A stretch of DNA of 34,703 nt from a bacterium (lineage in GTDB: Bacteria; DUMJ01). Where the stretch lies: contig JBMFMV010000011.1 of NCBI GenBank assembly GCA_049970495.1, forward strand, positions 1 through 34,703, read 5' to 3'. The notes beneath the pieces were generated by a model. It saw only the letters and a program-made list of their open reading frames with translations. It was not told where the DNA came from and did not search any database. This document shows positions 2,906 through 31,964 of this stretch, one piece after another. A program made the translations under genes and the position numbers. The number at the start of each line of letters is the position of its first letter. The stretch's first letter is position 1.

Positions 2906-5900
2906 ATGGAAAAGCTAGAATACGCAATACAAAGATTAGGTTTGAGATTAGGAGAACTTAGTACTTTTAAACTGATAAAAAGATATAATTTAAATGAATG
3001 GTCCTTTAGTACAGATAAGAAGAATTGGCAGAGATTAAATATAGGTGATAGGTGGCCAGTCCAGGCGTTCCCTTGTTATTTTACTAAGGAGTTTGTCATC
3101 CCGGAAGAATTTAAAGGTTTACCTGTAAGACTGCAGGTTTGGGTAGAAGGGGAAGGGATTGTATATATTAATGAAAAGCCCGTAGGAGGTTTAGACCCAA
3201 ATCATAGGGAATTTAAACTCCTAGACTCAGCTAATGGTGGAGAAAGATTTAATATTTTAATAGAAGCTGTCCCTAGAGGACCTTTTGGTAGCTATGTTGC
3301 TGATCCACACCTAACCCAGGCTCGATTAGTCAGTATTGACGATGCTGTGGAGTCTGCTTTATTTGATTTGTATGCAGTATTAGATGCAGCCAAGAATCTA
3401 CCTGATGAGAATGAATTGAAGGAGTTCTTGATAAATGCTTTAGACTCTGCTTTAAGTCTGGTAAAGTTTCCATCTCATACAGGAGACTATCTGGTAAATA
3501 TTACGGAAAATCCTTTCGGCAGTAGAATGGTCCTTGGAGTATGGAATCCTCCTATTCCTAAGGGAGAGTTCGTAAGCCCTGAAGAAACTAGGAAAAGTAT
3601 TATAGAAGCTGGTAGAAAGATTACTGAATTATTAGATAAGATAAAGGCACAGTATCCACCAGTAGGGAATATTACCCTAACAGGGCATTCACATATAGAC
3701 CTAGCTTGGCTCTGGCCAATGGCTGAGACAAGAAGGAAGATTAGAAGAACATCATCTACTATGGTTTCTTTGATGGATAGCTATAGCGATTTTAAATTCA
3801 ACCAAAGTAGTGCTCAGATCTATGCCTTCTTAAAAGAAGATGAACCAGAGCTTTACGAAAGAGTTAAAGAGAAGATAAAGAGTGGACAGTGGGAACCAGT
3901 AGGTGGTATGTGGGTTGAAAGTGACTGCAATCTCACCTCAGGTGAATCCCTTGTAAGACAGATGCTGTATGCGCAGAGGTTCTTTGAGAAGGAATTCGGT
4001 AAAAGATGTAAAGTCGCCTGGCTTCCAGATGCCTTTGGCTTTACCTGGACACTACCACAACTCTTTAAGAAAGCGGGTATAGATTACTTCCTTACTACTA
4101 AGATTAACTGGAATGAAACCAATAAATTCCCCTATGACCTATTCTATTGGAAAGGGTTGGATGGGACAAAGATAATAGCCCATTCTTTCCTAAACCCTGG
4201 CCAGGGTTATAATGGAAACATCCAGGCTCTAGATATACTTGGTACTTGGAAGAACTATAGGCAGAAGGTACTTTATCCAGACACCTTATTATCCTTTGGA
4301 TATGGTGATGGCGGTGGTGGACCAACGAGAGAGATGCTAGAAATGTATAAAAGATTTAAGGAATTCCCTGGATTTCCAAGGTTAAAGATGGGATTTGTGG
4401 AGGAATTTTTTGAAAGAGCTCCTAAGGAAGAGCTTCCCGTTTGGGATGGAGAACTGTACCTAGAACTTCACCGTGGAACTTATACAACTCAGTCTAAAAT
4501 GAAGAAGGCTAACAGAAGGGTAGAACATCTTCTCTATACCGCAGAAGTATTTGCTAGTATAGGGTATCTTATAACTGGTAGATATCCGCAAGATGAGCTA
4601 ACTATAGGGTGGCACAAGTTACTTAGGAATCAATTCCACGATATACTTCCAGGATCTTCTATTAGAGAGGTGTACGAAGATGCACTTAGAGAACTAAAAG
4701 AGGTAGAAGATTCTACAAATAGAATCATTCAAGAGTCTATAAAGACTATAGCTGGAAGACTGAAGCTAGATAGAGAAGCCATAATAGTCTTTAATCCAAC
4801 ATCTTTCTCTAGAGAACTAAGATATATAGGAAAAGATATTCCGTCTGATAAGCTTGAACTTTCTGATGGAAAACCTATCTTTGTGCAAGACCTACCCGAT
4901 GGAACCAAATTACTATATAGTCCAGAGGTCAAGGTTCCTCCTATGGGATATGTAGTGCTTTACAAGTCCCTACATATTCCTCAAGCTAGTAAGGTAAAGG
5001 TCTTTGAGGATACCTTAGAAAATGACCTGGTAAGAATTAAAATAGGAAATGATGGAACTATAGTCTCATACTATGACAAGATAAATGATAGAGAGATCTT
5101 TACCGATAGGGGGAATCAGCTGTGGGCTTATTCTGATAGACCTAGAAATTGGGATGCTTGGGATATTGCTACAGACTACGAAAATTATGGTGAAGAGATT
5201 AAAGATGTTGAATACATAAGAGTTATCGAAAGTGGACCAGCAAGAGTTTCTATAGAGGTAAAGAAGAGATATAGAAACTCTTGCATAGTGCAGAGGTATG
5301 TGTTATACGATGGGAGTCCGAGACTAGATATAGAAACTACGATAGATTGGCACGATAGAAGAATACTAGTTAAAGCCCTATTCCCATTTGATATTAGAAA
5401 CTCTTATGCAACTTATGAGATAGCTTATGGGCATATACAGAGACCTACTCATAAGAATACTAGTTGGGATTCTGCAAGATTTGAGGTCCCGGGTCATAGA
5501 TGGGTCGATATCTCAGAAGGTGATTATGGAGTAAGTATCCTAAACGATGCTAAATATGGTTACAGTGCTAATGAGAATATAATTGGCCTTTCTCTACTTA
5601 GAGCTCCAATATATCCTGATTTCTTTGCCGATGAGGGTGAACAGTCTTTCACCTACAGCATCTTACCTCATAAGGGTGATTGGAGGACAGAAACAGTACA
5701 GAGCGCTATAGCCCTTAATACTCCTTTAGTAGGGATTTCTTTAGTGACTACAGAAGGTGGAGCTGAGCTCTCTAGGTCATTCATAGATATAGGGTCGGAG
5801 AATATAATAGTTGGAGCATTTAAGAAGGCAGAAGATGATAATGCTGTAGTCTTAAGATTATATGAAGCCTATGGTTATAGAGGAAGAGTAAAGATAAAAT

Positions 5901-6034
5901 TTGGGTTTGATATAAAGAAGGCTGTAGAGACGAATCTCTTGGAAGATGACCTTACTCCCATAGAAGTAAAGTCTAACGAGATAGAAGTTCTATTTAAGCC
6001 TTATGAGGTAAAGACCATAAAACTATTCGTCTAG
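2906..6034 (+). CDS. Cytoplasmic alpha-mannosidase, glycoside hydrolase family 38
   Basis: GHSHIDLAWLW (Zn ligands), WLPDAFG (nucleophile Asp), GDGGGGP, ELYLELHRGTYT, NQFHDILPGSSI, LSLLRAP. Confidence 0.95.
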   Translation: MEKLEYAIQRLGLRLGELSTFKLIKRYNLNEWSFSTDKKNWQRLNIGDRWPVQAFPCYFTKEFVIPEEFKGLPVRLQVWVEGEGIVYINEKPVGGLDPNHREFKLLDSANGGERFNILIEAVPRGPFGSYVADPHLTQARLVSIDDAVESALFDLYAVLDAAKNLPDENELKEFLINALDSALSLVKFPSHTGDYLVNITENPFGSRMVLGVWNPPIPKGEFVSPEETRKSIIEAGRKITELLDKIKAQYPPVGNITLTGHSHIDLAWLWPMAETRRKIRRTSSTMVSLMDSYSDFKFNQSSAQIYAFLKEDEPELYERVKEKIKSGQWEPVGGMWVESDCNLTSGESLVRQMLYAQRFFEKEFGKRCKVAWLPDAFGFTWTLPQLFKKAGIDYFLTTKINWNETNKFPYDLFYWKGLDGTKIIAHSFLNPGQGYNGNIQALDILGTWKNYRQKVLYPDTLLSFGYGDGGGGPTREMLEMYKRFKEFPGFPRLKMGFVEEFFERAPKEELPVWDGELYLELHRGTYTTQSKMKKANRRVEHLLYTAEVFASIGYLITGRYPQDELTIGWHKLLRNQFHDILPGSSIREVYEDALRELKEVEDSTNRIIQESIKTIAGRLKLDREAIIVFNPTSFSRELRYIGKDIPSDKLELSDGKPIFVQDLPDGTKLLYSPEVKVPPMGYVVLYKSLHIPQASKVKVFEDTLENDLVRIKIGNDGTIVSYYDKINDREIFTDRGNQLWAYSDRPRNWDAWDIATDYENYGEEIKDVEYIRVIESGPARVSIEVKKRYRNSCIVQRYVLYDGSPRLDIETTIDWHDRRILVKALFPFDIRNSYATYEIAYGHIQRPTHKNTSWDSARFEVPGHRWVDISEGDYGVSILNDAKYGYSANENIIGLSLLRAPIYPDFFADEGEQSFTYSILPHKGDWRTETVQSAIALNTPLVGISLVTTEGGAELSRSFIDIGSENIIVGAFKKAEDDNAVVLRLYEAYGYRGRVKIKFGFDIKKAVETNLLEDDLTPIEVKSNEIEVLFKPYEVKTIKLFV

Positions 6035-14546: not shown

Positions 14547-17270
14547 TTATCCCTTTATTCTTATAGTCTTTATCTCATATGGCTTAAGATCTAGGGTAAT
14601 ACTCTTTCCTGTTATTTGTTTTTCTTCCCCTATTGGTTGCTCTATTAAGTCTGTTTCTACATAAGAACTGCAAGGTATATTCAATGTTATCCTCGCTGTT
14701 ATTTCTTTTCCATCAGTTTCATAAACTCTTAGGATTATATCATCATTATCTTCAGCCTTCTTCATTATCGATACTATTGCATTCTCCGGCTCTACGGTTA
14801 TTATCTCCATCGTTCTATCAAATTTTCCCCTATGCACATCTGTAACATATGGTATAAGTGGATAATTAAATTCGTTCCCTAACCTTATAAGTCTTGATGG
14901 ATTTAGTTCTCCTATGTGTGGATAGAGGGAGAATGTAAATTCATACTTACCTCTTTCAGGTAGGGGATCAGGCTCATAAGAGCTTCTTAGTAATGTCATC
15001 CTAATCCTGTCCTCTGTTACATCAAATCCATACTTAACTGAGCTCAAAACAGTGATACCTAATTTGTTTCCATTTTCCTCTACTCCTGTTAGATCTACCC
15101 ACTTCTGAGAAGGGACCTCATTACCATCTGGCTTTCTTTCTATACTTCCAAATGGAATATCAAATCTAGCCTTACCACAAGTTATATTAACAGGGAAAGC
15201 TACCTTTAACATGGGAACTCCTACTTCGTTGTTTCCTCTTTCTAACCAGAATATCTCAAGCCTAAAGTCTATCCTTGGGACATCATTATTAAGTATTACA
15301 TCAAGGACAAACTCGGAATCATTATACTTTCTCTTACTCCTGACTACCGCTCTTGATGGTCCAGTCTCTACAATTTCTACTGTAGCATCCTTATCTAAGT
15401 CTACAGTCCTTATTATCTGTCCAATCTCCCATGCACTCATAGGATGAGGAGTTTCATAAAGTATCTGTAATAGTCCTGCTTTGCCATCTTTAGGTAAAAT
15501 TTCTTTACCTGTAGCTTTATCTATTATACTAGTTATTGCACCTATCCCTGCATCTATAGTAAGTTTGTAGAATTGATTCTCTAATGTGTATCTATTGCTA
15601 GCCCTTACTCTACTCTCCGTTACCTGACCTGTATACATATCTTCTACCTTTACTTGAGAAGTGACTTCCTCCCCTTCCGAATACTTGAGATAGTAAGTCT
15701 TATAGCCATATCCTGGGACATTTTCGGCAGTAAACGTTGTCCTAAGCGCTTTCTGGAAGAATGAGTACTCTTTATACTGAACAGGTAAGACCTTCTTATT
15801 CTCATCTATCAAGACCAAGTTATCTTTTACATCAAATACATCATAGATATCTACTGTAACTGTATCTGTCCTCTTCCAAGGTAAAGGGTTAAATACTACT
15901 ATCGGGACTGCTCTCACGCTGCTATCTATCTCTGTATCTATGTCTCCTACTATAGCCTTCAGAGATAACTCTTTTACCATATTTCCACTTGCCTTTGCAT
16001 TCTGATATAATCCTTGTGCATACTTGTATGTTTCGGGAATTCCCGAACCAGGTAATATATCGTGGAACTGATTAAATAGAGTATTTATCCATGCTTCATC
16101 CATCAATTCCTTTGGTGGCATCTTACCAGTCAGTTTCTTTGATAGTACACTCAAGACCTCCGCAGAGGTTAATAGATTTTCTGCCTTTCTATTTGCCTCC
16201 TTTATATTGCTCTGTGATGTGTAGCATCCTCTAAAGACAAAGTTTAATTCATCATTAACTATAGGAAACCTATCTCCATACTTCTCTGCTATAGAGAAAA
16301 ATTCATCTGTAGTGCTACACTTTACCTTAGGGAATATAGGCCAGTTTTTCATCTCTTGGATAAGCTGAAGGTCTTTCCTAGTTGGTCCTCCTCCATGGTC
16401 CCCCACTCCATAGACTATAAGATAATCTTTCATGCCTGTCTTTTCGTAGAGCTCTACTGCTTCCACTACATCTTCCGGCTTTACAGGTCCTAGATACCAT
16501 AGTTTAGAATCATCCCATGCTAGAACTTTTGAGCCATCAGGCGCAGACCACCAGAATATTCTAGGTCCCTTTCCCGCCCTGCAGAAGTAGTATCTGGTTA
16601 TCCCTGCTTTCCGTAGGATTTGGGGATGCATCCAATGGTGTCCAAAGGTATCTGGTTCCCAGTCAATCTTTACTTTATCATAAGAGAAACCAAACTTTTC
16701 TTTGAAATATCTCTTGGTATATAGTATATGTCTTACTAATGATTCTCCACTTGCAAGATTTTTATCCCCTTCTACCCAGAAATTGGCAGTTACTTCCCAC
16801 TGACCATCCCTTACCTTTTTCTTTATCATCTCAAATGTCTCTGGACTATACTTTTCCATAGCAGAATATACAGAGGTTTGGCTCTGAGAGAACTTAAAAT
16901 CTAGAAACTCATCCATGAGTTTCATAGCAGTAGTAAATGTCTTATAAGAGGTATCCACAGTTTCTGGCCAGTCCCATAGCCAGTTCATATCTATGTGGGC
17001 ATGACCAACATAATGAATAGTAAATGTCTTTGCTACCTCTCCTATAGGTTCAAGGATTTTTTCTGCAGATTCTATAAGCTCTTTTGTGTCTTTCTTGCCT
17101 AGATTGTTAGAGACAAGATTTATCGCTTCCTCTATAAGTCTTTCCCACTCTTTTTTTCTCTCAGGGAATGCCTTTGCAAGCCTTAAGGCAAAGTTAACTT
17201 CGTATTTAAATCTTTTTACTTCCCATTCTACCCCTTTTAAAGCCTCTTCTAACTTCTCAGAAATTTTCAC
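14547..17270 (-). CDS. Second GH38 alpha-mannosidase-family hydrolase (GDHGGG subtype)
   Basis: GHAHIDMNWLW, WEPDTFGH, GVGDHGGGP, FRGCYTSQ, NQFHDILPGS, TLLRSS; GTG start with AAGGAGG RBS. Confidence 0.93.
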   Translation of the reverse strand: MKISEKLEEALKGVEWEVKRFKYEVNFALRLAKAFPERKKEWERLIEEAINLVSNNLGKKDTKELIESAEKILEPIGEVAKTFTIHYVGHAHIDMNWLWDWPETVDTSYKTFTTAMKLMDEFLDFKFSQSQTSVYSAMEKYSPETFEMIKKKVRDGQWEVTANFWVEGDKNLASGESLVRHILYTKRYFKEKFGFSYDKVKIDWEPDTFGHHWMHPQILRKAGITRYYFCRAGKGPRIFWWSAPDGSKVLAWDDSKLWYLGPVKPEDVVEAVELYEKTGMKDYLIVYGVGDHGGGPTRKDLQLIQEMKNWPIFPKVKCSTTDEFFSIAEKYGDRFPIVNDELNFVFRGCYTSQSNIKEANRKAENLLTSAEVLSVLSKKLTGKMPPKELMDEAWINTLFNQFHDILPGSGIPETYKYAQGLYQNAKASGNMVKELSLKAIVGDIDTEIDSSVRAVPIVVFNPLPWKRTDTVTVDIYDVFDVKDNLVLIDENKKVLPVQYKEYSFFQKALRTTFTAENVPGYGYKTYYLKYSEGEEVTSQVKVEDMYTGQVTESRVRASNRYTLENQFYKLTIDAGIGAITSIIDKATGKEILPKDGKAGLLQILYETPHPMSAWEIGQIIRTVDLDKDATVEIVETGPSRAVVRSKRKYNDSEFVLDVILNNDVPRIDFRLEIFWLERGNNEVGVPMLKVAFPVNITCGKARFDIPFGSIERKPDGNEVPSQKWVDLTGVEENGNKLGITVLSSVKYGFDVTEDRIRMTLLRSSYEPDPLPERGKYEFTFSLYPHIGELNPSRLIRLGNEFNYPLIPYVTDVHRGKFDRTMEIITVEPENAIVSIMKKAEDNDDIILRVYETDGKEITARITLNIPCSSYVETDLIEQPIGEEKQITGKSITLDLKPYEIKTIRIKG

Positions 17271-25673: not shown

Positions 25674-26354
25674 ATGAAACGCTCTGAAATAAATAAAATT
25701 TTAAAAGAATCTATCTCTTTTATTGAGAAGATGAATTTTCATCTTCCTCCCTTTGCACATTGGACCCCTGAAGACTGGAAGGATAAAGGGGAGGAGTATG
25801 ATGAGATAAGGGATAATATGCTAGGTTGGGATATAACCGACTTTGGTAAAGGAGATTTTTATAGAGAAGGCCTAGTTTTATTTACTATAAGAAATGGCAA
25901 CTTGAATATAAAAAAGTATATAAAGCCCTATGCGGAAAAGATTCTCATAGTTAGAGAAGAACAGATTACACCTTTTCATTTCCACTGGAGCAAGATGGAG
26001 GATATTATAAACCGCGGGGGAGGAAATATCTTAATACAACTATACAATTCAACAGAAGACGGAGGACTTGCTGATACACCTATCCATATTTCCATGGATG
26101 GAAGAAACTATACCGCTCCTGCAGGAACAATTGTAAGATTGACCCCTGGAGAGAGTATAACACTATTTCCGAAGGTATACCATAAATTCTGGGGGGAAAA
26201 GGGAACCGGCTTTACCCTCCTAGGAGAAGTATCTTCTGTAAATGATGATAATATAGATAATAGATTTTTAGAGCCAATAGGTAGATTCCCAGAGATAGAG
26301 GAAGATGAACCGCCCTTTAGGCTGTTAGTGATAGACTATAGGAAAGGAGAATAG
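25674..26354 (+). CDS. D-lyxose/D-mannose isomerase-family cupin (DUF1498-type)
   Basis: MKRSEIN, LPPFA.W, LGWDITDFG, YAEK, TPFHFHWSKMEDIINRGGG, PGESITL, YHKFWG, GEVSSVNDD. Confidence 0.88.
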   Translation: MKRSEINKILKESISFIEKMNFHLPPFAHWTPEDWKDKGEEYDEIRDNMLGWDITDFGKGDFYREGLVLFTIRNGNLNIKKYIKPYAEKILIVREEQITPFHFHWSKMEDIINRGGGNILIQLYNSTEDGGLADTPIHISMDGRNYTAPAGTIVRLTPGESITLFPKVYHKFWGEKGTGFTLLGEVSSVNDDNIDNRFLEPIGRFPEIEEDEPPFRLLVIDYRKGE

Positions 26355-26357
26355 GCT

Positions 26358-27263
26358 ATGGAAGAAGTGAATGAAATAATGAATAAGGCATGGAAACTTG
26401 GAATCCTCATTCCTGCTTTTAATGCAGCTTATCTTCCTATGGTAAAGACGATAGTCGATACCTTAAAAGAGGAAAGGACATTTGGGTTGGTTGAGGTTTC
26501 TCGCCCTGATGTAGAAAAATTTGGAGCTAAGAGCTTTGCTAGTGTAGCTGAGGAATTCTATAAATATGCTGATTTTTATTATACCAGACTTCATCTTGAC
26601 CATATTCCTGTCATAGACGAAGATGGTAATCTAGTCGATTGGGAAAAACTTATAAAAGAGGGGATAGAGCTTGGATATCATTCTGTGATGATTGACGGTT
26701 CTAGACTTCCGTTAGAAGAGAATATAGCCTGCACCAAAAGGGTTATAGAAATGGCACACCCTAGAGGTGTTCCCGTTGAGGCAGAGCTTGGGGCAGTATT
26801 CGGGCACGAAAAGGGGCCCCTTCCTCCATACGAGGAGCTCTTTATTTCTAAAAAGGGGTTTACATCTGTTGAGTCAGCTAAAATCTTTGTAAAAGAGACT
26901 AATGTCGACTGGCTCTCTGTAGCTATAGGAAATATACATGGTGCAATATCAGGTGTGGCAAAGGATCAAAAGAAGATATCTGCAAGACTTGATATAGAGC
27001 ATCTAAAAAGATTAAAAGAAGTCACTCAAAGACCGCTAGTTCTTCATGGAGGCTCAGGTATAAAAATAGAGTATCTAAGACTGGCTATAGAGAACGGAAT
27101 AACAAAGATTAATATTGGTACAGAAATAAGACAGGCATATGAGAAGGGACTAAAAGAGAGTAACAACGATATAGGTTTTGCCTGTAGTAAAGTTGCAGAC
27201 AAAATAAGAGAGCTTATAGAGTTATATGGAATTAAAAATAGTGTAGATAAACTATATGCTTAG
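26358..27263 (+). CDS. Class II ketose-(bis)phosphate aldolase (Fba/GatY family)
   Basis: PAFN, LHLDH, SVMIDGS, VEAELG, VAIGNIHG, LVLHGGSG, KINIGT. Confidence 0.9.
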   Translation: MEEVNEIMNKAWKLGILIPAFNAAYLPMVKTIVDTLKEERTFGLVEVSRPDVEKFGAKSFASVAEEFYKYADFYYTRLHLDHIPVIDEDGNLVDWEKLIKEGIELGYHSVMIDGSRLPLEENIACTKRVIEMAHPRGVPVEAELGAVFGHEKGPLPPYEELFISKKGFTSVESAKIFVKETNVDWLSVAIGNIHGAISGVAKDQKKISARLDIEHLKRLKEVTQRPLVLHGGSGIKIEYLRLAIENGITKINIGTEIRQAYEKGLKESNNDIGFACSKVADKIRELIELYGIKNSVDKLYA

Positions 27264-28274
27264 GACAACCTTTAATAGAGTGCTATCCTTCTGAGCCAAT
27301 TCTTTAAAGACTTTTGGTCCCTCATCTAAAGGTACTACTTTGCTAAGCATCTTATCAATATCAATTTTCTCTAAAAGACTTATCGACTCTTTAAATTCCC
27401 ATAATGTATAAGTATAGGTCCCTAGAATCCTTAATTCTCTAGTTACTATGTTCTGCATATCTATAGTGATGTTTTTCATGGAGTTTCCAACAAATACACA
27501 AGTTCCTCTATTTTTTATTATTCTAAGTGCCTGATTTACCGTTGTCTCTAAGCCAACTGCTTCAAACGCTAGGTCTATACCGCTAGGGAGAGATTTAGAT
27601 ACAGATTCTTTTATATCCTCTTTGTTAGGATTTAATACTAGGTCAGCCCCAAGTTTTCTAGCTATTCCAAGTCTTTTCTCATTTATATCAGTAATTACGA
27701 CTGTCCTTGCTCCGCCTAGTTTTACAATCTGGAGTATTAGAAGTCCTATAGTTCCAGCCCCAACTATTAATATATTTCGATTTAGAATATCTCCAGCCGT
27801 CTTTACTGCTCTATAGGCTACTGAGAGTGGCTCTAGAAAGGTGCCTCTAATAAAATCTATGTTCTCAGGTAATTTCAAGATATTTTCCTTAGGAACCCCT
27901 ACATATTCAGCCATAGCCCCATTCACATTCATAACACCAAAGATCGTTCTGCTCACACAAAGATTTGTCAATCCAATCTTACAGAATTCACATTTACCAC
28001 AGAACCTCGCCGGATAAACAACTACCCTGTCTCCTATGGAGATATCCTCTACCCCTTCTGCTACAGAGGATACTACTCCCGTAAATTCATGCCCCATAAC
28101 CATAGGAGGAATGCGTCTACCGGTTATGCCTAAATATCCGTGTACATCAGAACCACAAATACCACAAGCCTTTACCTTAACAAGGATTTCATCCTTATTA
28201 ATCTCTGGTTCTTCTATCTCTGAGATTCTTATATCCTGAGGTCCATAATACACTAAAGCCTTCACAATTTTCAC
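27252..28274 (-). CDS. Zn-dependent polyol(-phosphate) dehydrogenase (galactitol-1-P/sorbitol dehydrogenase-like)
   Basis: CGICGSDVH, MGHEF, CGKCEFC..NLC, EPLSVA, GAGTIG. Confidence 0.88.
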   Translation of the reverse strand: MKIVKALVYYGPQDIRISEIEEPEINKDEILVKVKACGICGSDVHGYLGITGRRIPPMVMGHEFTGVVSSVAEGVEDISIGDRVVVYPARFCGKCEFCKIGLTNLCVSRTIFGVMNVNGAMAEYVGVPKENILKLPENIDFIRGTFLEPLSVAYRAVKTAGDILNRNILIVGAGTIGLLILQIVKLGGARTVVITDINEKRLGIARKLGADLVLNPNKEDIKESVSKSLPSGIDLAFEAVGLETTVNQALRIIKNRGTCVFVGNSMKNITIDMQNIVTRELRILGTYTYTLWEFKESISLLEKIDIDKMLSKVVPLDEGPKVFKELAQKDSTLLKVVLSI

Positions 28275-28283
28275 CTACCTTAT

Positions 28284-29141
28284 TTATATTTTTGCTATAA
28301 TCTTCTTTAACTCTAATGCTTTCTTATAGACTCGATTTTTTGGTAAGTTAAACTTTTTAGATACTATCTCAATAGCCTCTTTTAAAGAGACCCCTTCTTT
28401 AGCTATGGCATCTATTATTAAAGCCTCTATACTTACTTCCAAATCAATCTTTTCAGTTTCTTCTTCATTATAGATTACTATAGTGTATTCCCCAACTCCA
28501 ACATTTGGGTCATTCTTCAATTCCTCTAAAACGTCGTAGATTTTTCCTATATATGACCTTTCGAAGACCTTTGTAAGCTCACAGAAGAAGCATACTGTAG
28601 AGTCTGGTAGTTCCCTAGCAATAAGTTCAGCTAGTGATAATATTCTTTTTGGAGATTCGTACAGAACTACAGTCTCTATATCTTTCCTCTTAATACTCCT
28701 TATAATCTCCTCTCTTTCTGATTCTTTCTTGGGCAAAAATCCTAAAAATAAAAAATGATTTATAGGAACCCCTGATACAGATAGGGCAGCCATAACTGCA
28801 GATGGACCAGGTATTGGGATAACCTCTATTCCCTTTTCCCTTGCATCCTTTACTATTCTGTATCCAGGGTCAGATATACAGGGTGTTCCTGCATTAGATA
28901 CAAGTGCTACATCCATATCCTTTTCCAATATATAACCTATGAGCAATCTAGACCTTTCCTCTTCGTTATACTTGTGATAAGAGATTAGCTTGGTCTCTAT
29001 GTTGTAGTGTTTTAATAGTATAGATGTATGTCTTGTATCTTCAGCAGCGATTAAGTCACAGTTATTAAGGACTTCTATAGCCCTATAAGTAATATCCTTT
29101 AGGTTACCTATAGGTGTAGCAACTACATATAGCCTGCCCAT
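28284..29141 (-). CDS. rsmI: 16S rRNA (cytidine(1402)-2'-O)-methyltransferase
   Basis: LYVVATPIGNL.DIT.RA, AEDTRHT, AGTPCISDPG, PIPGPSA, FLGFLP, YESP.R, ELTK. Confidence 0.93.
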   Translation of the reverse strand: MGRLYVVATPIGNLKDITYRAIEVLNNCDLIAAEDTRHTSILLKHYNIETKLISYHKYNEEERSRLLIGYILEKDMDVALVSNAGTPCISDPGYRIVKDAREKGIEVIPIPGPSAVMAALSVSGVPINHFLFLGFLPKKESEREEIIRSIKRKDIETVVLYESPKRILSLAELIARELPDSTVCFFCELTKVFERSYIGKIYDVLEELKNDPNVGVGEYTIVIYNEEETEKIDLEVSIEALIIDAIAKEGVSLKEAIEIVSKKFNLPKNRVYKKALELKKIIAKI

Positions 29142-29142
29142 C

Positions 29143-29937
29143 CTATTTTTCTCTTTTAATCAGTATATAGAACATCTCATTAATTAGTATAAATCTTTTT
29201 ACAATATAATGACCCCTTTGAAGGATAGGTTCAAAAAGTCTGCCATAGTTATCTGACATCCCCTTTTCTTTCCCTGAAAGACTCTTCAGAGGAAAGGAGA
29301 CTACTATAAACTTGCTCCTTATAGTTTCTAGTAGTTTTACAGAGAGCCCTCTTTTTATTCTCTCTGCTGTAGGAAGGAACTTAAATATAAAGCATACATC
29401 TACGCATTCCTCAACCTCCTCAAAGAGAACATCTTTTACTCTAGCTAATTGAGGATAGCTTAAAATAGCTAAAAACTTATTGATACTTTCTATAACTACA
29501 GCATCTATGTCATAAGCATAGTAGTTTATAGGACCTTCTATATTCATCCAGGGTATAGAAAATGGATTGAGTCCACAGGCTAAGTCTAATATAGAACTAG
29601 GTTTACTGACAGTATCAAAAATCTCTCTATAGAGCTCTCCATATATATCAATCCGTTCTCTAGTGGATTGGTGTAGTTGGAGTATCATCTTTGCTATACC
29701 CTTAATGTCTGAACGATCTTTCTCTAGGATCGATACTAATTCTCTGAGCTTTTGACTTTCTTCTTTGCTCAAAAATGCCCCATATGTTTGATGGAGTCTA
29801 TTTTTTACCGCTTTTATTAGGTTCTTTTCACTCTTATGTTTGGGTAGTTCTATCCTTGCTATCTCTAAGATTGTCCTCTCACTTATTTCTCTATACTTAC
29901 TAGAAGACTTTATCTTTTCCACTAGCTCTTCAAGCAT
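29143..29937 (-). CDS. ArmA/Rmt/FmrO(Sgm)-family 16S rRNA (guanine(1405)-N7)-methyltransferase homolog
   Basis: SSKYR, K.RLHQTYGAF, LHQSTRER, ILDLACGLNPF, YYAYDID, FKFLP..E, VVSFPLKSLSGKEKGM..NY, NEMFY: the family signatures in the expected order; 264 aa. Confidence 0.9.
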   Translation of the reverse strand: MLEELVEKIKSSSKYREISERTILEIARIELPKHKSEKNLIKAVKNRLHQTYGAFLSKEESQKLRELVSILEKDRSDIKGIAKMILQLHQSTRERIDIYGELYREIFDTVSKPSSILDLACGLNPFSIPWMNIEGPINYYAYDIDAVVIESINKFLAILSYPQLARVKDVLFEEVEECVDVCFIFKFLPTAERIKRGLSVKLLETIRSKFIVVSFPLKSLSGKEKGMSDNYGRLFEPILQRGHYIVKRFILINEMFYILIKREK

Positions 29938-31009
29938 TGTTTCTCTCTTTTATAAGTCCTATAAGTTCACTATAAAAGTAGAGATTATGAATAGTAGCTA
30001 ATCTAAATGCTAAGCAGTCTTCTACTTCAAAGAGATGATGTATATATGCCCTAGAGAAGTTCCTACAGGTATAACAATTACAGTACTCTGATATAGGCTT
30101 TTCATCTCTAGTGTACCTTTCTTCCTTTATAAAGATATTGCTGTAAAAATATTTATCTTTCAGGTCTATCCCGGGATTAAATACGTATAACTTACCATGT
30201 CTAGCTTCTCTAGTTGGTATAACGCAATCAAAGAGATTATAGCCAAATTCTGCACATATAACGATATTTTCTGGTTTTCCTATACCCATTGCATACTTGG
30301 GAAGATTGTTAGGCATCAGATTAGCAGTATATTCTAAAATCTCTACTAATAAGTTTCCATCTTTATCTAAGGGCCAACCCCCAAATCCATATCCATCAAA
30401 ACCTATCTCTATTAGAGAGTCTGCGCATCTTTTTCTTAAATCTCTATCCCTTCCTCCTTGTATTATTCCAAAGATGAGAGGTCGTTTACTCTTAGGATAA
30501 GTCTCTAAGAGCCTTTTATACTCATCTTTACATTTTAGAGCCCATTTAATAGTCTTCTCTACGGACTCTCTATTTATCTGATAAGAATCATCAGGATGAG
30601 TACAGTAATCTAGACTCATGATTATATCTGCTCCACAAAGATATTGAGTTTTAATACATCTTTCTGGTGTAAGTTCTATTTTCTCTTTAGAGGATGGTCT
30701 AAAAATGATACCTTTGTCTGTTACACTCCCGTACTTACTATTCTCTCTAATCATGGAGAATATCTGAAATCCTCCTGAGTCGGTAAGAATAGCTCCATCC
30801 CAGTTTATAAACTTATGGAGCCCTCCAAATTCTTTTATAACAGTAATCCCTGGCTTTTTCATAAGATGTAAGGTATTTATCACTATACCACGGATATTAG
30901 CACTATGTAGGTCTTTCTTATCTACTGATCGGACGACCCCACTAGTACCATCTGGAAAAAAAGCGGGCAATTCTACGTATCCGCTAGGTATATCTAGAAT
31001 CTTTTCCAT
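29930..31009 (-). CDS. tgt: tRNA-guanine transglycosylase-family protein with atypical base-binding pocket
   Basis: LTDSGGFQ, MSLDYC, GIIQGG, MGIGKP, LFDCVIPTR, CNCYTC..H Zn site, HNL; pocket loop reads GGWPLDK. Confidence 0.88.
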   Translation of the reverse strand: MEKILDIPSGYVELPAFFPDGTSGVVRSVDKKDLHSANIRGIVINTLHLMKKPGITVIKEFGGLHKFINWDGAILTDSGGFQIFSMIRENSKYGSVTDKGIIFRPSSKEKIELTPERCIKTQYLCGADIIMSLDYCTHPDDSYQINRESVEKTIKWALKCKDEYKRLLETYPKSKRPLIFGIIQGGRDRDLRKRCADSLIEIGFDGYGFGGWPLDKDGNLLVEILEYTANLMPNNLPKYAMGIGKPENIVICAEFGYNLFDCVIPTREARHGKLYVFNPGIDLKDKYFYSNIFIKEERYTRDEKPISEYCNCYTCRNFSRAYIHHLFEVEDCLAFRLATIHNLYFYSELIGLIKERNNA

Positions 31010-31037
31010 AAAGCTTTCTCATTCTATTTTTGGATTT

Positions 31038-31046
31038 ATTATAACA
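31038..31046 (-). promoter_or_regulatory. Putative extended -10 promoter of the tgt-methyltransferase-rsmI operon
   Basis: Minus strand TGTTATAAT (TGnTATAAT) ends 28 nt upstream of the tgt ATG. Confidence 0.55.
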
Positions 31047-31057
31047 TACTCGAACAC

Positions 31058-31086
31058 TTGCCAAGTGTCTAACTATATGTTATACT
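31058..31086 (+). promoter_or_regulatory. Sigma70 promoter of the rpsB operon
   Basis: TTGCCA (31058-63), 17-nt spacer, TATACT (31081-86) with TG at 31078-79. Confidence 0.7.
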
Positions 31087-31089
31087 TTC

Positions 31090-31169
31090 ACAAGAATCTG
31101 CATGCCTCATATCTCTAAGTCCACTTTGGTGGTAATGAGGCAGAAGTTTAACTTAGAGGAGGAGAATAT
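31090..31169 (+). promoter_or_regulatory. Structured rpsB 5' leader (candidate S2 autoregulatory/t44-like element)
   Basis: TGCCTCAT (31103-10) pairs with ATGAGGCA (31135-42), enclosing a CCAC-TTTG-GTGG hairpin; lies between the promoter and the AGGAGG RBS. Confidence 0.5.
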
Positions 31170-31964
31170 ATGGCAATAGTGACTATTAAACAGCTTTTAG
31201 AAGCAGGTGTCCATTTTGGACATCAAACGAAACGTTGGAATCCCAAGATGAAGCCCTATATCTTTGCAGAGCGAAATGGGATTCACATAATAGATCTTCA
31301 AAAGACAGTGGTGTGTTTAGAGAAGGCTTATGAAATTGTAAGAGACGTATCAGGTAACGGGGGAAAGGTCCTTTTTGTTGGAACTAAGAAACAAGCTTAT
31401 GAGGTTATAAAGACTGAGGCTGAGAGATGCGGAATGCCCTATGTAAATCAGAGATGGCTTGGGGGACTTCTTACTAATTTTCAAACAGTTAGAAGGAGTA
31501 TAGAGAAGTTAAAGAAGTTAAGAGAGGAAAGAGATAAGGGATTGTGGGACTCATACACAAAGAGGGAGAGAAAGCACTTAGAGATAGAGCTTAATAGGCT
31601 TGAGAAGTATGTAGGGGGAATAGAAAACCTTAACAGTCTTCCAGAACTCTTATTCATCATAGATACAAAGAAAGAGGAAAACGCGGTTAAGGAAGCTAAG
31701 AGACTTGGAATTCCTATAGTTGGTGTGGTAGATACGAATGGTGATCCAGAGATTATAGATTATCCTATTCCTGGAAATGATGATGCTATAAGAGCTATAA
31801 GACTATACTGCAGCAAGATTGCAGATGCGGTATTAGAGGGGGTAGGAATGAGAAAAGAGGAGGTTGAAGAAGAGATAACAGAAATGCCAAGTATAGAAGA
31901 GATTTCTATAGAAGAAATTGAAGAAAAGGTAGCAAGTGAATACGAGGAGGAGACGTTAGATTGA
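31170..31964 (+). CDS. rpsB: 30S ribosomal protein S2
   Basis: [50 protein letters not shown]; acidic tail. Confidence 0.99.

Follow-up and report, generated by a model that had tools for sequence, protein, structure and literature searches.

A widespread paralogue of bacterial tRNA-guanine transglycosylase, linked to 16S rRNA G1405 methyltransferases, as a candidate base-exchange enzyme of helix 44

Why should a bacterium carry a second gene of the tRNA-guanine transglycosylase (TGT) family that overlaps the gene of a 16S rRNA methyltransferase? The question is raised by contig JBMFMV010000011.1 of assembly GCA_049970495.1 (GTDB lineage Bacteria; DUMJ01), of which we analysed a stretch of 34,703 nucleotides (positions 1 to 34,703 of the forward strand, hereafter the window). 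The gene in question, named TGT2 here, and the features discussed below are located in Table 1. Comparison of its product with homologues identifies it as a member of a distinct and widespread family of TGT paralogues. We regard it as a serious possibility, still short of probable, that TGT2 is a catalytic base-exchange enzyme acting on helix 44 of 16S rRNA together with the methyltransferase encoded beside it; as part of this reading, and held no more firmly, queuosine in tRNA would not be served by TGT2, being left to the ordinary tgt-queA pair of the genome.

TGT2 is a full-length member of family PF01702 (2e-105 in a Pfam search) and scores 345.9 bits against the TIGR00430 equivalog model, above the cut-off of 306.75, which explains why it is automatically named Tgt. 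The closest solved structures are those of the Tgt enzymes of Thermotoga maritima, Escherichia coli and Zymomonas mobilis (1e-76 to 1e-71). An AlphaFold model made from an alignment of 26 family members (predicted local distance difference test score 92.4) matched solved TGTs in Foldseek with template-modelling (TM) scores of 0.85-0.89 and a root-mean-square deviation (rmsd) of about 2 A, and shows the TGT TIM-barrel with its zinc subdomain. The superposition on a TGT structure that a first-pass annotation of this DNA had proposed as a check is thereby borne out as far as the fold is concerned.

Residue counts were taken over 81 TGT2 sequences (the window copy and 80 further loci) and 26 canonical TGTs. 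Common to both groups are Asp77, Asp134, Cys136, Gln184, Gly210, Gly211, Met241, Asp261 and the four zinc ligands. The catalytic aspartates and the residues facing the guanine (the Asp of LDxC, the Gln of QGG, the GG pair and the Met of MG) are kept in 76-80 of the 81 TGT2 sequences, and those of the window protein align without gaps in HMMER with the T. maritima (2ash) and E. coli (10fb) structures. QGG and YAMG motifs are also found in the translation, and the statement of the first-pass annotation that DSGG, D-x-C, QGG, MG, FDCV and the zinc site are intact agrees with our location of each of them in the window open reading frame (ORF). Asp264 of the E. coli enzyme forms the covalent intermediate, according to the available part of PMC13416341. 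Since the residues for covalent catalysis and for reading the 2-amino-6-oxo face are retained, the substrate base should still be guanine-like and the chemistry still base exchange; TGT2 very likely works through a covalent ribosyl-enzyme intermediate.

TGT2 is not the queuosine tgt of its genome. The source genome (95.5% complete) holds a second, canonical TGT gene split across two contig ends, the N-terminal piece of which reads FMPVGT and follows queA and the C-terminal piece of which reads GGLSVGE and precedes yajC; the copy between queA and yajC fills the queuosine role, and because this ordinary tgt-queA pair is present TGT2 is not needed for it. The same pairing is found widely: of 50 genomes with TGT2, 48 hold a canonical TGT as well, with a PF01702 score above 500 bits (500-575), and the TGT2 copies of the same 50 genomes score 295-365 bits. 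A maximum-likelihood tree of the 81 TGT2 and 26 canonical sequences, 20 of the latter coming from TGT2-carrying genomes, splits cleanly into the two groups (SH-like support 0.892) across a branch of 0.49 substitutions per site, and mean identity is 57% within TGT2 and 36% between TGT2 and canonical TGTs. A phylogeny had also been proposed by the first-pass annotation, and for the bacterial canonical TGTs it gives this clean separation. Homologues of TGT2 type among the best 120 database matches belong to uncultured relatives, Dictyoglomota and many Clostridia, one of them the isolate Anaerobacterium chartisolvens. TGT2-type sequences also account for at least 42 of the 148 cluster representatives (50% identity) that lie nearest in a library of 1.8 billion proteins.

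Read from the alignments, TGT2 has been rebuilt only on the side of the pocket that faces position 7 of the base and where the enzyme grips its RNA. Within the pocket loop, position 212 is Trp in 74 of 81 TGT2 sequences (Phe in 3, Tyr in 1; Leu, Thr or Val in canonical TGTs), position 213 is Pro in 77 with gaps in the other 4 (canonical Ser or Ala), position 214 is Leu in 62 (canonical Val) and position 215 is Asp in 71 and Gly in 5 (canonical Gly). The column of the canonical Glu235 (Glu in 26 of 26) is unconserved in TGT2, with Ala in 21, Lys in 13, Ser in 13 and Glu in 11 of the 81. In the N-terminal segment Asp20 replaces a canonical Val in 74 of the 81 and in 0 of 26 canonical sequences. 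Every one of the 120 best homologues (54-88% identity) reads F[FL]PD[GA]T, and GG[WYF]P stands in all of the 40 commonest pocket variants, which cover 113 of these 120. The two changes co-vary among aligned cluster representatives and fusions, PD occurring with WP in 29 and PV with LS or LA in 49. Both altered segments had been translated correctly in the first-pass annotation (PDGT for PVGT in the second), and its hand-made mapping of the changes (L231W, A232P, V233L, G234D, E235K and an N-terminal V-to-D change, here V45D) was reproduced by a gap-free HMMER alignment that sets GGWPLDK opposite GGLSIGE or GGLAVGE and FFPDGT opposite FMPVGT. The numbers are what we take to be the Z. mobilis equivalents of the TGT2 positions, and V45 presumably lines the ribose-34 site.

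The consequence of these changes can be read against the Z. mobilis enzyme, in which, according to the available part of PMC3660597, the Leu231/Ala232 peptide turns its NH toward guanine and its C=O toward preQ1, Glu235 is the partner of this flip and holds the group that points backward, and a queuine pocket requires Gly at 233 and Val at 158. Pro213 has no NH and a switch partner would then be pointless, so that the proline and the loss of the glutamate form one coherent change. The TGT2 pocket so predicted is without a hydrogen-bond donor to N7 and presents a carbonyl, an aromatic ring and usually a carboxylate. On this prediction it suits a base with a cationic or hydrogen-bond-donating position 7, namely 7-methylguanine (m7G) or the aminomethyl group of preQ1, and does not suit guanine or preQ0. 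As the N7 donor is lost, the base handled by TGT2 would be 7-substituted. The pocket is not of the queuine type either, because Leu214 occupies position 233 and Cys136 (Cys in 79 of 81) position 158. The earlier suggestion that it fits neither the preQ1 nor the queuine pattern is therefore upheld by Pro213, the unconserved glutamate, Leu at 233 and the kept Cys158 equivalent, set against the flip mechanism as given in the accessible text of PMC3660597.

A second set of changes lies on the RNA side. TGT2 carries a four-residue insertion of the form IRENxxYG, in which Glu89 is found in 75, Asn90 in 77 and Gly94 in all 81 sequences, and a second TGT2 insertion precedes the zinc site. The Glu of the canonical D-E-C motif (22 of 26) is swapped for Tyr, Met, Leu or Val; Cys136 is followed by a TGT2-specific T-H-P turn (His138 in 64 and Pro139 in 77 of 81; Pro and Tyr in canonical TGTs); and Ala240 stands beside the stacking Met where canonical TGTs have Leu. 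The loop L98-I104 of E. coli TGT becomes ordered upon tRNA binding and stacks on A37 (PMC13416341, available part), and since the insertion replaces this tRNA-contacting segment the RNA-gripping surface is changed too.

The genomic setting of TGT2 was examined at the 80 loci (50-82% identity), which came from a scan of species-representative genomes and were selected by TGT2 similarity alone; gene orders were read by tblastn with the window proteins and one RsmH. A gene homologous to FmrO, the G1405 methyltransferase, lies directly downstream of TGT2 on the same strand at 78 of the 80 loci, RsmI is in the string at 52 and RsmH at 30, all genes being on the same strand and the methyltransferases showing 27-67% identity to the window versions. 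The commonest order is RsmH>TGT2>FmrO>RsmI (27 loci), followed by TGT2>FmrO (24), TGT2>FmrO>RsmI (14), RsmI>TGT2>FmrO (10) and RsmH>TGT2>FmrO (3). At L051 TGT2 stands alone on a 1.6-kb contig that ends 70 nt past it, and at L078 RsmI>TGT2 is followed by an FtsH-like gene. Many of the 80 loci belong to related Clostridia and so are not independent events, but the set covers identities as low as 50%, three or more gene orders and several phyla by label. Binning errors may lie behind a few contig labels (Muribaculaceae, Bdellovibrionales, Poribacteria), and absences from metagenome-assembled genomes (MAGs) are soft. In two TGT2 copies from the class sample described below, L125 (G094:C161) and L127 (G184:C25), the match to the query is broken in two after about residue 170 or 282, which points to insertions a few tens of residues long that these lineages gained within the barrel.

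The association also holds when approached from the methyltransferase. PF07091 was found in 6 of 41 relatives, namely the source genome and its five congeners (G001-G005); the same six genomes each carry TGT2 (72-100% identity to the window copy), no other of the 41 genomes searched has either gene, and in the five congeners TGT2 lies directly beside FmrO on the same contig. Being close kin, these six genomes represent a single event. Of 200 genomes sampled evenly from the class around A. chartisolvens (G051), with one further genome unscored, three had PF07091, each with TGT2 directly upstream of FmrO and a canonical TGT elsewhere. FmrO was thus found only in genomes that also hold TGT2, the two genes adjoining wherever coordinates were compared. 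When the 891 ORFs of the 80 loci were clustered, only lineage-specific genes recurred beyond FmrO, RsmI and RsmH, among them an energy-coupling factor (ECF) S-component in five related MAGs, a kinase-like protein, tryptophanyl- or tyrosyl-tRNA synthetase, a MATE protein and others. No queuosine-salvage gene was found among the conserved neighbours, and several clusters that proved to be antisense ORFs lacking a Pfam match were discarded as uninformative. An Rfam scan of the window and eight related loci at gathering thresholds gave no hits, and thus no preQ1 riboswitch. A complex prediction for TGT2 and the methyltransferase, made with two alignments, scored 0.00, below the mark, and speaks neither for nor against binding. 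The ECF-type S-component (PF12822, with weak ThiT/FolT similarity) occurs at about 8.2-8.8 kb in L030, L038, L041, L046 and L066, all from related Bacillota MAGs, and lies about 300 nt downstream of the FmrO gene in L046, where its position was checked; it could be a transporter for the base used by TGT2, or its presence could be coincidence.

TGT2 is also fused to the products of these same neighbouring genes. We identified an RsmH-TGT2 fusion (P0121), RsmI-TGT2 fusions (P0122, P0123 and P0125) and TGT2-FmrO fusions (P0124, P0126, P0127 and P0245). Pfam scans found two near-full-length domains in P0121, P0122, P0124, P0126, P0127 and P0245; the domain pairs of P0123 and P0125 are taken from a precomputed listing. 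All eight read GGWP and seven have an FFPD-type motif, which was unmatched in P0127, where the TGT domain starts at profile position 45. Some fusions could be artefacts of gene calling, although several of the clusters are represented by more than one member and contig. That search also returned TGTs 34-39% identical to the query, which were fused to QueA (3) or to Methyltransf_30 (about 100) and never to RsmH, RsmI or FmrO; four of these were checked for motifs, and the pocket is canonical in all four, with FMPVGT in three. The target of both RsmH and RsmI is C1402 and that of FmrO is G1405, which places the sites of the three enzymes inside a stretch of four nucleotides at the top of helix 44. 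This clustering of the partner enzymes' sites is the strongest indication of where TGT2 works, and we infer that the base it exchanges sits in 16S rRNA at or next to G1405. The proposal of the first-pass annotation that a different base or target is plausible thus gains strong and independent, though circumstantial, support from the paralogy and from the linkage and fusions to FmrO, RsmI and RsmH. As a separate observation, the roughly 100 canonical-type TGTs with a C-terminal Methyltransf_30 domain (PF05430; P0132-P0240) come from Leptospira, Myxococcota, Opitutaceae and others.

The methyltransferase of the window narrowly misses the NF000466 cut-off (245.5 against 250 bits), and its best solved relative is Sgm (4e-42), followed by RmtC. 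Residues critical for docking, helix-44 distortion, G1405 flipping and catalysis have been defined by cryo-electron microscopy of RmtC on the 30S subunit (PMC10054953, available part). By manual count on the pairwise alignment, RmtC His54, Tyr60, Ser107, Asp160, Lys204, Arg211, Lys236, Ser239, Arg241, Met245 and Asn248 correspond to H49, F55, S91, D143, K186, R193, K218, S221, K223, M227 and N230 of the window protein, respectively. Of 77 neighbouring FmrO sequences, 76 retain the His, all 77 the aromatic residue and the Ser, and 75 each the Asp and the equivalent of Lys204; 74 and 75 have a basic residue at the positions of Lys236 and Arg241, respectively, and 73 have the Met. Given that the residues critical in RmtC are kept, all the sequence criteria at hand describe the partner as a working G1405 methyltransferase. 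A chromosomal FmrO in an uncultured low-GC bacterium predicts, from its sequence, intrinsic resistance to 4,6-disubstituted deoxystreptamine aminoglycosides.

Genes of TGT2 type are also present on clinical resistance plasmids. A tblastn search of 72,556 plasmids identified them at 50-58% identity on plasmids of Klebsiella, Enterobacter, Providencia and E. coli, the other matches being canonical tgt genes (37-40% identity), mostly from misfiled chromosomes. Three arrangements were seen: rsmH-TGT2-rmtG followed by a 98-amino-acid RsmI-type fragment and an IS91-family element, TGT2-metallophosphoesterase-rmtB2 between IS91 and IS26, and TGT2-rmtD1 between copies of IS26. Intact plasmid copies carry FFPDAT and GGWPL(D/G), and the "tgt" beside rmtG, rmtD or rmtB2 is 50-54% identical to the window protein and shares its motifs, as FFPDAT and GGWPL. 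The plasmid order rsmH-tgt-rmtG-rsmI fragment is that of the commonest natural operon, although the plasmid copies are mobilised operon fragments between IS26, IS91 and ISCR elements in Enterobacterales, whereas the window copy is chromosomal, in an uncultured low-GC bacterium, and next to rpsB-tsf-pyrH-frr. Because plasmid and natural gene orders match, several acquired 16S rRNA methyltransferases would have been captured from such operons, and the comparison points to operons of the TGT2 type as the source of rmtG, rmtB2 and rmtD1. Some plasmids (H13-H15 and H29) retain a truncated TGT2 comprising residues 113-350 only. In the available part of PMC3904158 "a putative tRNA ribosyltransferase" upstream of rmtG is mentioned as context, and the available part of PMC9311965 likewise treats the rmt-linked tgt as mere context. 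Our literature search, whose coverage excluded most subscription journals, found no functional assignment of the rmt-linked tgt as a distinct enzyme; in the literature found, the tight linkage of TGT2 to the m7G1405 methyltransferase and the TGT2 signature are undescribed, apart from passing mentions of a "tgt" beside rmtG.

Taken as one functional unit, TGT2 and the overlapping Rmt/FmrO-type methyltransferase, often alongside RsmI and RsmH acting on C1402 three bases off, might operate as follows. The methyltransferase would flip out G1405 and make m7G1405. The TGT2 pocket, with Pro213 lacking an NH, the glutamate switch lost, Trp212 and usually Asp215, would accept the cationic 7-substituted base; Asp261 would attack C1' and 7-methylguanine would leave, being a far better leaving group than guanine. 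Another guanine-like base would then be installed, our best guess being a salvaged preQ1-type 7-deazaguanine, and a preQ1-like base at 1405 would mimic the cationic mark in a stable form and be consistent with lasting drug resistance. This specific version, in which m7G1405 goes out and a deazaguanine comes in, is speculative and we consider it unlikely in its details. We are equally doubtful of the wider claim that TGT2 is the first rRNA guanine transglycosylase, with methylation serving as activation for a swap to a stable 7-substituted guanine analogue.

Several points weigh against an action of TGT2 on helix 44. The protein scores above the TIGR00430 cut-off set for tRNA Tgt and has lost none of the residues that ordinary guanine exchange requires, and what supports a role at helix 44 is association together with residue logic. 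Asp215 is not universal, and Gly stands there in the rmtG-linked TGT2 copy as well. Known TGTs act on U-G-U in hairpin loops, the context of G1405 is C-G-U (also read as GCCCGTCA), and to our knowledge transglycosylated bases are unreported in rRNA. On their own, cloned rmt genes suffice for resistance. The plasmids with a truncated TGT2 indicate that it is dispensable for methylation or resistance, and so it would act after or beside the methyltransferase and not before it. In the mature 30S subunit G1405 is Watson-Crick paired and buried in helix 44 (PMC10054953, available part). Genes for de novo synthesis of 7-deazaguanines are also rare in TGT2 carriers, 3 of 50 having full-length QueC and 4 of 50 having QueF; the remaining QueC matches were partial N-terminal PP-loop cross-hits of 19-31 bits and were left uncounted.

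Given this rarity, an incoming base would have to be salvaged or be something else. We found no full-length QueC, no QueF and no YhhQ in the source genome, which has QueT (152.6 bits), queA and the canonical tgt; with this set of genes it appears to live on an imported precursor of queuosine. A salvaged preQ1-type base is accordingly predicted to be available in the source genome, and going by its gene content TGT2 cannot depend on de novo synthesis. As salvage through QueT exists, the rarity of QueC and QueF is no proof for or against a deazaguanine substrate. The contigs of the source genome yielded no helix-44 motif, probably because the 3' end of its 16S gene is missing from the assembly. 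Two complete genomes of carriers show the universal motif (GCCCGTCA), so that there is no genomic change at 1405.

Could TGT2 be an isoenzyme of tRNA-guanine(34) transglycosylase, used for another imported queuosine precursor or under other growth conditions and placed near rRNA methyltransferases for co-regulation? We judge this unlikely, even though its TIGR00430 score lies above the cut-off, its catalytic, guanine-face and zinc residues are intact, its fold matches solved TGTs at about 2 A rmsd, databases and papers on antimicrobial resistance name it tgt, and genes of the queuosine pathway are near-universal in its carriers, as seen in the 48 of 50 with a canonical tgt and in the QueT of its own genome. 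With a canonical tgt in the same genomes a second tRNA enzyme would be redundant, and its linkage is specific to FmrO (78 of 80), with fusions to FmrO, RsmI and RsmH where canonical TGT fuses with QueA. Co-regulation would also have to account for the presence of FmrO only in TGT2-holding genomes, adjoining it wherever coordinates were compared, for the remodelling of the tRNA-contacting loop and the FMPVGT segment, both conserved in their new form, and for the lack of a queuosine-salvage gene among conserved neighbours and of a preQ1 riboswitch or other Rfam hit in the window or the eight loci scanned.

Two further readings share much of the evidence for an rRNA target. TGT2 might be an eraser or proof-reader that returns 7-methylguanine to guanine at G1405, or at mis-methylated guanines, and so makes the methyltransferase less costly to fitness. 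This agrees with the association and pocket evidence as well as exchange for another base does, guanine is always available and requires no 7-deazaguanine supply, in keeping with the 3 of 50 and 4 of 50 carriers with QueC and QueF, and interference of m7G methyltransferases with the neighbouring RsmH, RsmI and RsmF methylations (PMC3923132, available part) would give a rationale for a corrective partner in an operon with RsmH and RsmI. We nevertheless think it quite improbable: a writer and an eraser co-translated from overlapping genes would make a futile cycle, an incoming guanine would miss the NH by which its N7 is normally bound, and intact TGT2 copies beside rmtG, rmtD1 and rmtB2 in resistance contexts would, if expressed there, be odd if the mark were efficiently removed. 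A non-catalytic helper that binds helix 44 or the 30S subunit and aids methyltransferase docking or G1405 flipping would account for the tight linkage and the fusions, and QTRT2, chains of which are among the solved relatives, offers a precedent for a TGT-fold subunit lacking catalysis. A scaffold would not need catalytic aspartates, guanine-face residues and zinc ligands kept in 77-80 of 81 sequences, and Rmt enzymes work alone on 30S subunits in the structural study (PMC10054953, available part), which makes such a helper very improbable indeed.

Catalytic base exchange on helix 44, whether for a deazaguanine or back to guanine, remains the reading that we prefer, and some of the probability left over goes to readings other than those discussed. 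With the bacterial Tgt enzymes of Z. mobilis, E. coli and T. maritima (EC 2.4.2.29) TGT2 shares the fold, 34-39% identity, the aspartates, the guanine-face residues, the stacking Met, the Cys158 equivalent and the zinc site. It differs from them in being a paralogue beside a real tgt, in its linkage and fusion to 16S rRNA methyltransferases and not to queA, in FFPDGT and W-P-L-D-x, in having no N7-facing NH and no glutamate switch, and in the conserved four-residue insertion of the RNA-contacting loop and the other before the zinc site. Queuine-type TGTs (QTRT1 and the TGTs of queuine-salvaging bacteria) likewise share the fold and catalytic residues, with QTRT1 chains matched at 1e-53 to 1e-56, but the window protein has Leu214 and Cys136 where Gly233 and Val158 are needed for the cyclopentenediol. 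DpdA and archaeal TGT (ArcTGT), which place preQ0 in DNA or at tRNA position 15, are precedents for TGT folds that changed both target and base. TGT2 is distant from the archaeal enzyme (TIGR00432 87.1 bits against a cut-off of 350; ArcTGT 1iq8 at 2.5e-6), and no dpd-type neighbours were found among the clustered ORFs of the 80 loci, no separate search with a DpdA model having been made. The methyltransferase of the window resembles Rmt, Arm and Sgm in its full-length PF07091 domain and in the conserved docking, flipping and catalytic residues of RmtC, and differs in falling just under the NF000466 cut-off, in being chromosomal and paired with TGT2, and in not coming from an aminoglycoside producer. 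The window copy of TGT2 itself carries the signature of its clade, x-x-P-D-[GA]-T combined with GG-[WYF]-P, the Glu two residues further on being no longer conserved, and the context of its clade, an FmrO-family gene directly downstream with an 8-nt overlap.

Should TGT2 act on helix 44, base exchange, known for tRNA and through DpdA for DNA, would extend to rRNA at the site of aminoglycoside action. If methylation is indeed followed by a swap, a two-enzyme pathway would write a base not seen before into the decoding centre of 16S rRNA, clinical plasmids with rmtB2, rmtD and rmtG would carry that pathway too, and some high-level aminoglycoside resistance might depend on a mark other than plain m7G. 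Intact TGT2 accompanies rmtG, rmtD1 and rmtB2, and any effect of it on the resistance mark or on fitness cost is directly testable. The named source records in our listings and the annotated plasmid copies all say "tRNA guanosine(34) transglycosylase Tgt", so counts of queuosine capacity made from tgt hits would be inflated in these lineages. Bacterial TGT is used for site-specific labelling of RNA, and a TGT2 with other RNA or base preferences could widen that toolbox.

Table 1. Location of TGT2, its motifs, neighbouring genes and related loci (positions are those of the window unless a contig or plasmid locus is named)
Feature	Location	Strand	Basis or remark
TGT2, TGT paralogue, 359 aa, ATG start	29930..31009	-	ORF, PF01702, TIGR00430
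FFPDGT, canonical FMPVGT	30944..30961	-	Translation; D in 74 of 81 TGT2, V in 26 of 26 canonical
DSGG, Asp77	30770..30781	-	Gap-free against DSGG Asp of solved TGTs; D in 80 of 81 TGT2, 26 of 26 canonical
Loop insertion IRENSKYG, directly after DSGGFQIFS, TGT2-specific	30728..30751	-	Canonical TGTs gapped at residues 87-90
LDYCTHP, Asp134 and Cys136 retained	30593..30613	-	D in 78 of 81, C in 79 of 81 TGT2
Pocket loop FDGYGFGGWPLDK, W-P-L-D-x for canonical L-(S/A)-V-G-E	30362..30400	-	Translation and HMMER alignment
FDCV, Asp261	30221..30232	-	Aligned to FDCV Asp of E. coli TGT; D in 78 of 81 TGT2, 26 of 26 canonical
Zinc site C310, C312, C315 ... H341 (CxCxxC...H)	29987..30082	-	Each ligand in 77 of 81 TGT2, 26 of 26 canonical
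8-nt overlap ATGCTTGA, TGT2 stop and methyltransferase start	29930..29937	-	ORF coordinates
Rmt/FmrO-family 16S rRNA (guanine1405-N7) methyltransferase homologue, 264 aa	29143..29937	-	PF07091 4.5e-41
RsmI, 16S rRNA C1402 2'-O-methyltransferase	28284..29141	-	TIGR00096 248.5 bits against 167.9; PF00590 and RsmI_C
Broken queA-tgt-yajC cluster, source genome (G000)	C118:1-1271 and C61:3-1147		L003, L001
rmtG following an intact TGT2-type gene	L122 4063-7129		Plasmid locus
rmtB2 following an intact TGT2-type gene	L123 4995-7736		Plasmid locus
Metallophosphoesterase between TGT2 and rmtB2	L123 6146-6955		Providencia plasmid
rmtD1 following an intact TGT2-type gene	L124 4998-7225		Plasmid locus
ORF, 448 aa	10773-12119	-	No Pfam match at 1e-5
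ORF, 379 aa	20029-21168	+	No Pfam match at 1e-5
Mannoside/pentose utilisation genes	2906-6034	+	
Mannoside/pentose utilisation genes	14547-17270	-	
Mannoside/pentose utilisation genes	25674-26354	+	

The surroundings of TGT2 in the window are those of a housekeeping region. RsmI starts one base past the stop of FmrO, a gene for a zinc-type alcohol dehydrogenase lies past RsmI, and upstream of TGT2 runs the divergent string rpsB-tsf-pyrH-frr-uppS. A reading of the window copy as part of a mobile element or defence system was ruled out by this chromosomal setting, which is the same across the genus (rpsB is near in L017-L019). A scan of positions 27000-31300 for promoters and terminators gave counts not above those in shuffled sequences. 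Elsewhere the window contains a neighbourhood for the utilisation of mannosides and pentoses, which includes two GH38 alpha-mannosidases, a GH4 hydrolase, D-lyxose isomerase, a class II aldolase and a transporter of the major facilitator superfamily (MFS).

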